In this document: positions 30,590 to 32,198 of the stretch, piece after piece | How the letters are laid out: each line of letters starts with the position of its first letter | Numbering within the stretch: the first letter of the stretch is position 1 | DNA from: Verrucomicrobiota bacterium | GTDB lineage: Bacteria > Verrucomicrobiota > Verrucomicrobiia > Limisphaerales > CANJXF01 | Assembly (NCBI GenBank): GCA_043775015.1 | Contig: JAYVSV010000003.1 | Location: forward strand, 3,930-67,929 | Length of the DNA: 64,000 bases | Reading direction: 5' to 3' | Translations under genes and position numbers: made by a program | Notes under the pieces: model-generated | Seen by the model: only the letters and a program-made list of their open reading frames with translations | Databases searched by the model: none | Told to the model about the DNA's origin: nothing

Positions 30590-31465
30590 TTAAATTACAA
30601 TTTCAGTGCCGATTCCTGCATCAGTGAAAATTTCCAGCAGCACGGAATGTTGAACCCGGCCATCCACAAAAGAAACTTTTTCCACGCCAGCCGTAATCGC
30701 GACAACGGCGCTATCCACCTTTGGAATCATTCCTTTGTCGATCACACCGGTTTTTTTCAATCCGTCCACTTCGGAAATTTGCAGGTGCGAAATCACGGTG
30801 GACGGATCTTTCGGATCACGCATCAAACCTGGAACGTCGCTCATGAAAACAAGTCGTTTCGCCTTCAGCGCGATCGCGACCTGCGCCGCCGCAACATCCG
30901 CATTGCAGTTGTAAATTTTCCCGTCTTCACCGAGTGCGGTTGGACTGATGACCGGTGTGATACCCTGCTTGATACAGGCAAGCAGCGGCGCAGTGTTCAC
31001 TTTAAAAACTTCACCGACGTAACCGATGTCGAGTGGTTGTCCCTGCGAATCTTTGAGAAAAGTTTTTTGACATTTGAAAATTTCTGTTCCAGAGAAACCT
31101 TTGGCCGCGCCGCCGAGGGAATTGATCGTCGCGACAATCTCTGGATTGATTTCAGAAGAAAGAACGTCGTCCACAATCTTCACCGTCGCCTCATCGGTCA
31201 CGCGCTGGCCTTGAATGAAACTGGCTTTCAATCCCGCCGCTTCCATCGCGCGAGTGATTGCTTTGCCGCCGCCGTGAACGACCACCGGATTAATTTCGAC
31301 TGCTTCAAGAAAAACAATGTCGCGCGCCACGCCATTGCGAATCGCCGCGTCCGGGGAATCCATAAAACTTCCGCCGTATTTCACGACGAACGTTTCGCCG
31401 CTGAATTTCTGAATGTAAGGCAACGCTTCAAGCAACGTCGCGGCTTTGGAGATGAGGTCTTGCAT
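30590..31465 (-). CDS. argB: acetylglutamate kinase
   Basis: [23 protein letters not shown] motifs. Confidence 0.9.
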   Translation of the reverse strand: [291 protein letters not shown]

Positions 31466-31468
31466 GAG

Positions 31469-31792
31469 TTAAATGAAAAACGAAGCCGGGTTTGCGCGCC
31501 AGTTTTGTGCGCCGTAGATGACACGCAGAATTTCAATCTCTTTTTCCAATCCGCGATAAAAAACCAACCAACGATTGAAAGGTGGTGGCAGGACGCTGAA
31601 GCGAACGCCGGCGAGACGGCGATGTTTCAATCGCGCCATCGGGCCGGATTCAGGAAATTTCGCCAATCGGTCAAACGCTTTGAAGGTTGCGTCCAAAAAA
31701 CACCGTGCTGCTTTCGGATTGTCCGCAAAAATCCAGCGTGCGCCTTCCACCAGGTCATGGTCGGCTTTCGGCTTGGTGCGATAGCCGCTCAT
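31469..31792 (-). CDS. parE: ParE/RelE-fold type II toxin
   Basis: 107 aa. DLVEGARWI...FLDATFKAFDRLAKFPESG...WLVFYR...IEILRVIYGAQN matches the ParE pattern. Confidence 0.8.
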   Translation of the reverse strand: MSGYRTKPKADHDLVEGARWIFADNPKAARCFLDATFKAFDRLAKFPESGPMARLKHRRLAGVRFSVLPPPFNRWLVFYRGLEKEIEILRVIYGAQNWRANPASFFI

Positions 31793-32055
31793 TTCACTTT
31801 CAGTGCCTGATGATAAATGCGTTTCTTACGTTCATCCGTCATCCGCACGCTCTCGCCGCTGTCCAATCCTTCCAGCAACAGCTCTTCCAAATCTTCGCGC
31901 CCATTCACCGAACACCCGCGAGGTCCGGCGTTGCGTTCGAGCGCATCGGCCAGCCGCAACGAATGGCGGATCACTTCACCTTCGTTGGCGAACTGTCCCG
32001 TGGCGATCTGTCGCTGGACGATGCGCTTGTAATAGGGAGTCAATGTTTGGCTCAT
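31789..32055 (-). CDS. parD: ParD-type (RHH, CC2985-like) antitoxin
   Basis: MSQTLTPYYKRIVQRQIATGQFANEGEVIRHSLRL. 4-nt overlap with parE. Confidence 0.7.
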   Translation of the reverse strand: MSQTLTPYYKRIVQRQIATGQFANEGEVIRHSLRLADALERNAGPRGCSVNGREDLEELLLEGLDSGESVRMTDERKKRIYHQALKVK

Positions 32056-32198
32056 ACGGAAGAAATTTCTATCCATCGCCAATGGGAGTCAAGCGTCCGA
32101 AGCGGCCCGTATTTCACGACAAATATTTCGCCACTGAATTTCTGGATGTAAAGCAACGCTTCGAGCAACGTTGCGGCTTTGGAGATGAGGTCGTGCAT
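32052..32198 (-). pseudogene. orphan 5' fragment of argB (31 homologous codons, then an out-of-context tail)
   Basis: [31 protein letters not shown] versus argB [31 protein letters not shown]. The 48-aa ORF ends in a TGA that overlaps the parD ATG (ATGA). Confidence 0.85.

Follow-up and report, generated by a model that had tools for sequence, protein, structure and literature searches.

Type II toxin-antitoxin (TA) modules of the ParD-ParE kind, such as Caulobacter ParDE1 (3kxe), a Mesorhizobium pair (6x0a) and a chromosomal pair of P. aeruginosa (6xrw), are composed of a small upstream antitoxin of the ribbon-helix-helix (RHH) type, ParD, and an overlapping toxin of about 100 amino acids, ParE. 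Here we describe a pair of the same organization in the genome of a soil/freshwater Verrucomicrobium, where it is located between a displaced 5′ fragment of argB (argB′, hereafter the remnant) and the complete argB. The locus lies within a 64-kb stretch of DNA, referred to as the window (WIN), and was compared with loci of relatives and of other assemblies, designated by L-numbers (L001 etc.). In contrast to the known modules, the pair is embedded in an arginine biosynthesis operon with a gene of an essential pathway 3 nt past the toxin stop codon, it is flanked by direct repeats of the argB start (93–120 nt), and the matches of its ParD are weak.

Long (about 100 bp) target duplications surround addiction-type cassettes devoid of mobility genes (PMC2853133, PMC3874152), and 'insertion with long target duplication' has been described for restriction-modification complexes (Nobusato et al. 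2000, Gene 259:99; Furuta et al. 2010, PMC2853133; review PMC3874152). The argB locus is similar in that a small addiction cassette free of transposase and integrase genes is present between direct repeats, which span tens to hundreds of bp in such insertions; the repeats exceed 30 bp and align to one copy at the empty site of relatives (L103–L108). It differs in being a type II TA pair rather than a restriction-modification system, in that the repeat boundary coincides with a gene terminus, so that the host gene is intact, and in its clade-wide persistence with concerted evolution of the repeats. In addition, the copies in sister cases (see below) diverge like functional alleles, which points to import with the cassette rather than to fill-in duplication. 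No report of a classical type II TA pair with a long duplication of the target turned up in the literature searched, most subscription journals being outside its coverage.

Homology-facilitated illegitimate recombination (HFIR) has been proposed for displaced orphan immunity genes and orphaned 3′ gene regions in type VI secretion system (T6SS)/Rhs loci (PMC5361080, PMC3240628; de Vries & Wackernagel 2002, Prudhomme et al. 2002 and Meier & Wackernagel 2003, as cited therein), the term being defined in PMC3240628. Common to HFIR and the argB locus is the combination of a homologous anchor with an illegitimate joint, whereby donor sequence completes the gene end and leaves the recipient's own end behind as a displaced orphan fragment, although in the present case the process is inferred. 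Finally, the minimal mobile elements of Neisseria, mentioned in PMC3787668 and PMC8627216, are cassettes exchanged by homologous recombination in conserved flanking genes. They resemble the argB locus in the presence or absence of a recombinase-free cassette at a fixed site between conserved genes, but lack duplicated gene ends, whereas here both homology arms represent the same gene segment.

The argB′-parD-parE-argB locus and its counterparts in relatives

The history that we propose for this locus, with a probability of roughly two in three for the scenario as a whole, comprises a single old insertion of ParDE by recombination, a remnant that is a relic, and transcription of the pair from its own ParD-repressible promoter. 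ParDE would have entered the 5′ end of argB once, in the ancestor of a large clade of Limisphaerales (Verrucomicrobiota). What had been the first ~38–40 codons of argB would have been left in place as a dead-end fragment, and the parE stop codon would have gained a complete argB start 3 nt behind it.

All genes of the locus, and the sequence elements described with them, are on the minus strand. Repeat search and MAFFT alignment delineate a direct repeat of 93 nt with 90% identity and a spacing of 733 nt. Its upstream copy (32107–32199) is the displaced 5′ end of argB and its downstream copy (31374–31466) is the 5′ end of the functional argB (30590–31465; acetylglutamate kinase, 291 aa); both begin at C-ATG. 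The repeat given in an earlier note on this DNA (31371–31465/32103–32198) is real, although those coordinates extend a few bases too far on the 3′ side. Across the 64 kb, direct repeats 40 nt or longer and no more than 5 kb apart number just three, and the argB repeat is thus not a chance match. Over the first 31 codons the remnant and argB differ by 10 nt in nine codons, six of them synonymous (A9, L12, I18, S22, F25, G31) and three non-synonymous (Q2H, P16L, T24I), which reproduces the count made earlier.

The remnant open reading frame (ORF; 32052–32198) encodes 48 aa with no family match in Pfam, codons 1–31 being argB-like and followed by a 17-aa tail. It begins 5 nt after the stop codon of a TPR gene (32204–32800; Pfam TPR_1/2/8), and its TGA (32052–32054) overlaps the ATG of parD (32053–32055) in the form ATGA. 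The parD gene (31789–32055; antitoxin, 88 aa) overlaps parE (31469–31792; toxin, 107 aa) by 4 nt, and the parE stop codon is separated from the argB start by 3 nt (TAA-CTC-ATG, 31463–31471). Repeat alignment, ORFs and Pfam agree with the earlier note that parDE is bordered by a displaced 5′ fragment of argB on one side and a complete argB on the other, and Pfam confirms the gene order argJ-orf67-TPR-argB′-parD-parE-argB-argD-argF. The insert contains parD and parE alone, with the TPR gene and argB as neighbours; ORF and Pfam analysis detected no recombinase, transposase, integrase or other mobility gene in or adjoining it.

By sequence and predicted fold the cassette appears to be an ordinary ParDE module, with toxin and antitoxin activities that are predicted. 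As in the known modules, both genes have Pfam matches and the fold predicted for ParE is closest to solved ParE toxins. ParE matches PF05016 (ParE_toxin) over profile positions 2–89 of 89 with an E-value of 1.3e−11 (45.4 bits, cut-off 23) and PDB entry 6x0a with an E-value of 1.7e−8 (phmmer), while none of the NCBIfam models matched it. Its AF2 model (pLDDT 88.4, pTM 0.82; elements E-H-H-E-E-E-H) has the ParE/RelE fold, with two N-terminal helices packed on a three-stranded sheet. Foldseek comparison with the PDB retrieved ParE-type toxins as all of the top 23 matches (TM 0.66–0.84), the top chains coming from ParDE, PaaA2-ParE2, PrpAT and PfiAT complexes; RelE, YoeB and YafQ were ranked lower. 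ParD matches PF03693 (ParD_antitoxin) over residues 2–40 (E-value 1.9e−4; 22.2 bits against a gathering cut-off of 21), TIGR02606 below its cut-off (E-value 6.5e−11; 42.1 bits, cut-off 46.2) and the solved ParD chains 7b22 and 3kxe weakly (E-values 0.03–0.09). It is 97–99% identical in L003/L004. Because the ratio of non-synonymous to synonymous substitution rates (dN/dS) of parDE between lineages is 0.05–0.12, both genes are maintained by purifying selection. ArgB scores 225 bits against TIGR00761 (cut-off 151), and also matches Pfam AA_kinase.

To collect counterparts of the locus, ArgB was scanned in one genome per species, which yielded 80 Verrucomicrobiota loci, mostly from Limisphaerales, with 73–93% identity to the window ArgB over residues 1–291 (tblastn confirmed 565 argB relatives). 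Seven further loci came from a metagenome scan with a ParE alignment and 13 from look-ups of ParE homologues. The layout recurs in at least 10 other lineages of Limisphaerales. The complete order argB′-parD-parE-argB is found in L003, L083, L084, L086/L087, L088, L089 and L090–92; L004 and L076, whose contigs begin in the remnant tail and in parD, respectively, show the parD-parE-argB part only. Across the cassette-bearing relatives the identity of ParE to that of the window ranges from 96% down to 68%, and argB of L003/L004 is 92–93% identical to that of the window. The right junction is invariant across lineages: a parE stop codon, 3 nt and ATG. The 3-nt spacing is present in all 10 lineages in which parE adjoins argB, with the junction sequence TAACTCATG in seven and TAATTC, TAATCA and TAGTTC as variants.

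The left junction was placed at codon ~31 in the earlier note, but in seven other lineages the remnant extends to argB codon 38–40 and is followed by a conserved GCTTGAC, so that the repeat of 93 nt in the window corresponds to 111–117 nt (up to ~120) in relatives. A deletion of ~11 nt near remnant codons 32–36, common to the window, L003 and L004, is the reason why the window repeat is only 93 nt long and why its 17-aa tail had seemed unrelated to ArgB; the tail consists of frameshifted argB and the cassette's own upstream region. The ancestral duplication is therefore best read as having spanned about 38–40 argB codons.

Relatives with an uninterrupted TPR-argB arrangement, which the earlier note had named as a useful comparison, were found through TPR homologues. 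In L103–L108 an uninterrupted argB begins 5 nt after the TPR stop codon, and this junction (attgaaaaaatcctgaccgat ATGCAAGAC) is homologous to the TPR-remnant junction of the window (attgaaaaaatcttaatcgac ATGCACGAC). Since the two junctions are homologous, the remnant marks the original position of argB, and it is the working argB that has been displaced behind the cassette.

The most likely origin of this structure would be one-sided homologous recombination with incoming DNA in which parDE already adjoined an argB start. Such an event, combining a homologous crossover inside argB with an illegitimate joint at the other end, would amount to HFIR, with an insertion with long target duplication as its outcome. 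The repeats are homologous from precisely the argB ATG up to codon ~38–40, where cassette DNA adjoins, a structure compatible with HFIR. Reported HFIR events mostly delete recipient DNA rather than duplicate it.

Promoter-like signals upstream of parD

We compared the 48 nt upstream of parD across 17 lineages. A TTGAC motif is found 36–39 nt before the parD ATG in all of them, including six that lack the remnant. In the window it is part of TTGACT (32087–32092), a candidate −35 element that starts 37 nt before the parD ATG. It is followed by a 17-nt spacer with a dyad (32070–32086) and by GAAATT (32064–32069), a weak, A/T-rich and putatively −10-like hexamer that ends 8 nt before the ATG; GAAATT, GAATTT, GAGATT or GGAAAG occupies the −10-like position in 15 of the 17 lineages. 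The arms of the dyad co-vary, being CCAT..ATGG in the window and CTATTG.CAATAG, ACACC..GGTGT or ACCC..GGGT in relatives. RHH antitoxins usually autoregulate, and on this basis the dyad is a candidate ParD operator; a dyad in the presumed promoter, with a predicted operator role, is a further likeness to known ParDE modules. At sigma-70 spacing the transcript would start at, or a few nucleotides from, the parD ATG, i.e. it would be nearly leaderless.

Because this motif of fixed geometry is also present in the six remnant-free lineages, parDE would have a promoter independent of the remnant, and the pair probably has its own autoregulated promoter/operator. Under the proposed history, parDE would be transcribed from the ParD-repressible TTGACT-17 nt-GAAATT promoter with a start close to the ATG. 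Transcripts reading through from the arg genes upstream would probably contribute as well, both kinds of transcript would run on into argB-argD-argF, and argB would be translated by re-initiation after parE. A sequence scan detected no terminator-like site between the TPR gene and argB, and co-transcription of the cassette with the arg operon is thus possible. In L090 and L061 the gene upstream of the cassette is on the opposite strand; hence in these genomes argB must be transcribed from within or just before the cassette.

The ATGA overlap led the earlier note to propose that the TA pair is driven by the original argB start region. According to this explanation the remnant ORF would be a working leader: ribosomes would start at the old argB site, make the 48-aa peptide and re-initiate on parD via ATGA, and the pair would use the signals of the arg operon. 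The overlap does exist in the window, no Shine-Dalgarno-like sequence precedes the parD ATG, no terminator-like site lies between the TPR gene and parD, and every remnant has retained its ATG or GTG and stays open for at least 31 codons. However, the overlap rests on a single derived nucleotide. Position 32074 is G (TGG) in the window and A (TAG) in L003/L004; as other lineages, among them those of the other clade, also have A at the homologous position, the G is derived. In L003/L004 the remnant ORF is closed by this TAG, 15 nt ahead of the parD ATG, in L086/88/89/94 the ORF stops in the TTGACA box ~33 nt upstream of parD, and in L084 it runs out of frame into parD. As the end of the ORF differs between lineages, coupling to the remnant is not a conserved feature, and the 48-aa ORF that reaches the overlap looks like a by-product of one recent A-to-G change. 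The G lies within the dyad and improves its CCAT/ATGG symmetry. Moreover, six lineages keep parDE and the upstream motif without a remnant, and the opposite-strand genes upstream in L061 and L090 also speak against the use of signals from upstream arg genes. We therefore regard a working leader as unlikely, and drive by the old argB start as unlikely to be the main mode of expression. Of the claims of the earlier note, insertion with duplication of the argB start is supported and extended, whereas conserved drive by the old argB start is not supported.

Inheritance of the cassette and evolution of the remnant

The groupings of ParDE and ArgB are concordant. Synonymous divergence (dS) of parDE is saturated between deep lineages while dN/dS is low, and the pair thus appears to be both functional and old. 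The comparison of lineages shows a layout that has been inherited mostly vertically since the insertion and a cassette that has been lost in many of them; recombination between the two repeats would give scar-free loss. Close relatives of the window, L005 and L081, have argB without the cassette. A search for traces of parDE upstream of argB in L005–L007, L018, L019, L021, L025, L035 and L081 gave no significant match, the 9-nt match to the end of parE in L007 having an E-value of 3.4.

Partial outcomes are also present. In a second ParDE clade (L085, L093, L097–L100) the order is argJ(-X)-parDE, followed by a convergent ilvC, with neither argB nor a remnant; parDE (at about 2738–3324) is at the end of the transcription unit. 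In L094, of the same clade, a 40-codon ArgB-like remnant is kept and an SGL-family gene follows, with no adjacent argB. It appears that the arg cluster was split immediately behind parE. Among clade-I lineages without an adjacent argB, four of five have lost the remnant. In L061 (4611–5000) an orphan parD, 69% identical and accompanied by the TTGAC element, is located 123 nt before argB. Its parE is deleted, a trace of the parE end (CTAACTC) persists, and the upstream gene is, as mentioned, encoded in the opposite direction; argB may have retained the antitoxin gene with its promoter to serve as the promoter of argB itself.

Each remnant has its nearest counterpart in the functional argB start of the same lineage, and the remnants do not cluster together. 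For example, the remnant of L083 has 3 differences in 93 positions from its own argB and at least 13 from any other remnant, and lineage-specific residues (e.g. MHDPIT…FSHATF) are present in both copies of a lineage. Since the remnants track their own argB while the synonymous sites of parDE are saturated, repeated homogenisation (concerted evolution) is required. The remnant could have been re-homogenised with the neighbouring argB by gene conversion or by exchange with functional alleles. With the two argB copies homogenised, their origin is unreadable.

Between close lineage pairs the remnants have accumulated 8.5, 5 and 6 non-synonymous changes, compared to none in the full copies. Judging from these changes, from the variable end and stop position, from the 11-nt deletion and from losses in lineages without an adjacent argB, the remnant is under relaxed constraint. 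Pooled comparison of remnants with their own argB gave 42 synonymous and 19 non-synonymous differences. The same few synonymous sites toggle among copies and sister lineages, and we attribute the synonymous excess to an exchange of pre-existing variants between functional alleles and the two copies. The proportion of differing synonymous sites (pS) at the argB 5′ end showed no difference in cassette-free lineages (0.632 vs 0.632); a lower value in cassette-bearing lineages (0.48 vs 0.62) comes from 28 non-independent pairs and is not relied on. The segment ATTCAGAAATTCA within the repeat was considered as an ARG-box-like element and rejected by eye, as it is a non-palindromic direct repeat that encodes the conserved YIQKF motif.

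Several points weigh against the proposed history. The distribution of the cassette on the neighbour-joining (NJ) tree of ArgB is patchy and needs many losses or some horizontal spread, the NJ trees being weakly resolved. For argB, a long target duplication in situ with subsequent conversion would give a similar picture. The promoter, the leaderless start, repression by ParD and parE-argB coupling are deduced from conservation and geometry, and a generic promoter scan returned five promoter-like sites against 3.9 expected, none of them in the cassette. That scan missed the TTGACT site because the −10 hexamer is weak; the corresponding terminator scan gave seven terminator-like sites against 10.7 expected, including a weak one inside argB (31370–31390). 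Such scans were uninformative here, the TTGAC element being found only by comparison of lineages. Finally, the dN/dS of remnants versus full copies is 0–0.35, with more synonymous differences than a neutral remnant predicts, and in all remnants the start codon is retained and the frame stays open through at least 31 codons; the remnant may be under weak selection.

The patchy distribution might alternatively be taken to mean that a mobile parDE inserted site-specifically into argB again and again, with a fresh duplication in each lineage. Such recurrence would also account for the within-genome similarity of remnant and argB and for the existence of both filled and empty TPR-argB sites. Yet no recombinase or transposase is encoded in or next to the cassette, both junctions are alike in all lineages save for small indels, and the divergence of parDE parallels that of argB and is saturated between deep clades, which is unexpected for a cassette on the move. 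We consider recurrent insertion improbable.

The synonymous excess, in turn, could be explained if the remnant were a selected micro-protein, comprising the free N-terminal helix and first strand of ArgB, or a selected nucleotide element. In arginine-sensitive acetylglutamate kinases the N-terminal helix and first strand interlace the hexamer. Besides the low dN/dS and the pooled counts, a start codon and frame kept in 10 of 10 lineages, only two non-synonymous against 20 synonymous differences in L083, L086, L088 and L090 together, and the ArgB-like 40-codon remnant retained by L094 without an adjacent argB are in line with this possibility. On the other hand, remnants of close pairs gain non-synonymous changes that the full copies do not, the C-terminal end and stop position vary, the window lineage carries the 11-nt deletion, and the remnant has been lost in four of five clade-I lineages. 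Exchange between functional alleles, as in the aldehyde-dehydrogenase-like and argJ repeats described below, also accounts for the synonymous excess. Selection for a product of the remnant thus appears slightly less probable still than recurrent insertion.

An assembly artefact caused by chimeric joins of reads from co-occurring strains, a concern raised in the earlier note, can practically be dismissed: although a 93-nt repeat is in the size range at which short-read assemblers break or mis-join and contig L002 ends inside the second repeat copy, L001 spans both copies at 100% identity, the repeat is present at 100% identity in Logan assemblies of separate runs (SRR23617269, SRR23617268), and at least 10 other assemblies from unrelated projects and species have the same layout with sequence differences of their own.

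Other insertions flanked by duplicated gene ends

Four cases of gene-end duplication were seen, three of them in the window. One of the latter (17386–19626, plus strand) consists of an aldehyde-dehydrogenase-like gene (17386–18822), a DUF433 gene (18896–19132), a gene for a 105-aa partner with no family match (19129–19446) and a 59-aa ORF (19447–19626) that duplicates the last 153 nt of the aldehyde-dehydrogenase-like gene. The DUF433 gene and its partner are likely to be a TA pair; no defence-system model of PADLOC matches this pair, ParD or ParE. The two copies of the 153-nt repeat (18663–18815 and 19470–19622) are 83% identical at the DNA level, with 47 of 47 residues identical and a pS of 0.67, i.e. 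about two thirds of synonymous sites differ.

In the third case of the window, also on the plus strand, a purN-like formyltransferase gene (58704–59375) has its first codons and the region preceding them duplicated 4.5 kb upstream. The repeat covers 127 nt at 91% identity (54173–54299 and 58694–58820), and the start of a PSCyt1/DUF1549/DUF1553 gene (54177–57083) is fused to the purN duplicate. The 4.5-kb insert, composed of this gene and a DUF1501 gene (57096–58553), is not a TA pair.

In relatives, genes for a Phd-like antitoxin and a PIN (VapC-like) toxin are located behind argJ and followed by a duplicate of the last 75–122 nt of argJ. Such cassettes are present in L005 (3265–4211), L021 (3740–4603), L089 (1031–1883) and L018 (990–4056), and the argJ duplicates are 75–95% identical. 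In L005 the ATG of the duplicate overlaps the toxin stop codon; L089 carries both the Phd/PIN and the argB′-parDE cassettes. The argJ 3′ repeats of L005 differ by 19 synonymous and 6 non-synonymous changes, and the pS of the aldehyde-dehydrogenase-like and argJ repeats is ~0.67–0.69, the protein sequence being conserved. Duplicates formed in situ would start identical, the orphan copy then decaying at all positions. Because the copies in these two cases look like diverged functional alleles, a crossover with donor DNA consisting of a gene end plus cassette fits them better.

These cases lead us to a broader, tentative suggestion that we consider possible but doubtful, namely that such small cassettes move among Limisphaerales without a recombinase. 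A TA pair or another set of genes would travel attached to the conserved end of a housekeeping gene and reach a new genome through a crossover in that gene, the host's own gene end being left as a flanking repeat; the gene-end duplication would be the footprint of entry and would later provide homology arms for excision and re-insertion by RecA alone, the toxin punishing excision. The ParD-controlled promoter would possibly also be that of argB-argD-argF.

How chromosomal TA pairs without mobility genes spread and persist is still debated. The argB locus offers a dated and well-resolved series of how such a pair enters, persists in and leaves a conserved operon: sites that are empty, sites that are filled, a flank in decay or under conversion, an antitoxin left as an orphan (L061) and lineages with the pair but without the neighbouring gene. 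If the proposed history is true, conserved ends of housekeeping genes would serve as landing pads and the flanking repeats as both an entry scar and a scar-free exit route, and a behaviour documented so far for restriction-modification systems would extend to classical TA modules. As argB, a gene of an essential pathway, has long been seated 3 nt behind a toxin gene, a link between TA regulation and arginine synthesis is testable. For annotation, short ORFs that copy the start or end of a neighbouring gene are best taken for displaced gene ends rather than new genes.

In L066 (4263–4939), a relative that lacks parDE, a different, weakly ParE/RelE-like ORF (27% identity, E-value = 0.004) ends ~20 nt before argB. 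This region shares homology with the segment that lies behind argJ in L089. In general, small toxin-type genes seem to use the argJ-argB interval as a landing zone.

In the window, argJ (33058–34419) is followed by orf67 (32865–33068), a 67-aa ORF that overlaps the argJ stop codon by 11 nt, has no Pfam match and is missing from L003, where the TPR gene overlaps the argJ stop codon in its place. A scan of 28000–35000 against Rfam at E-values up to 1 retrieved no known RNA element, only a sub-threshold ribosomal-leader match inside argJ. From the end of argJ to the last 33 nt of the TPR gene, the window (32231–33043) and L003 (3689–4235) have no detectable DNA similarity: the interval holds orf67 and the TPR gene in the window and a TPR gene only 44% identical in L003, whereas the flanks are 87–89% identical. 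In more distant genomes (L103), TPR genes share 69% identity with that of the window. This suggests that the orf67-TPR segment has been replaced by recombination. On the other side of the cassette, argB is followed in the window by argD (29302–30588) and argF (28402–29298). L004 has undergone a rearrangement directly downstream of argB: ~120 nt past argB it continues, in place of argD-argF, with opposite-strand sequence (L004 1644–6513) that in the window is found ~10 kb away (41403–46287).

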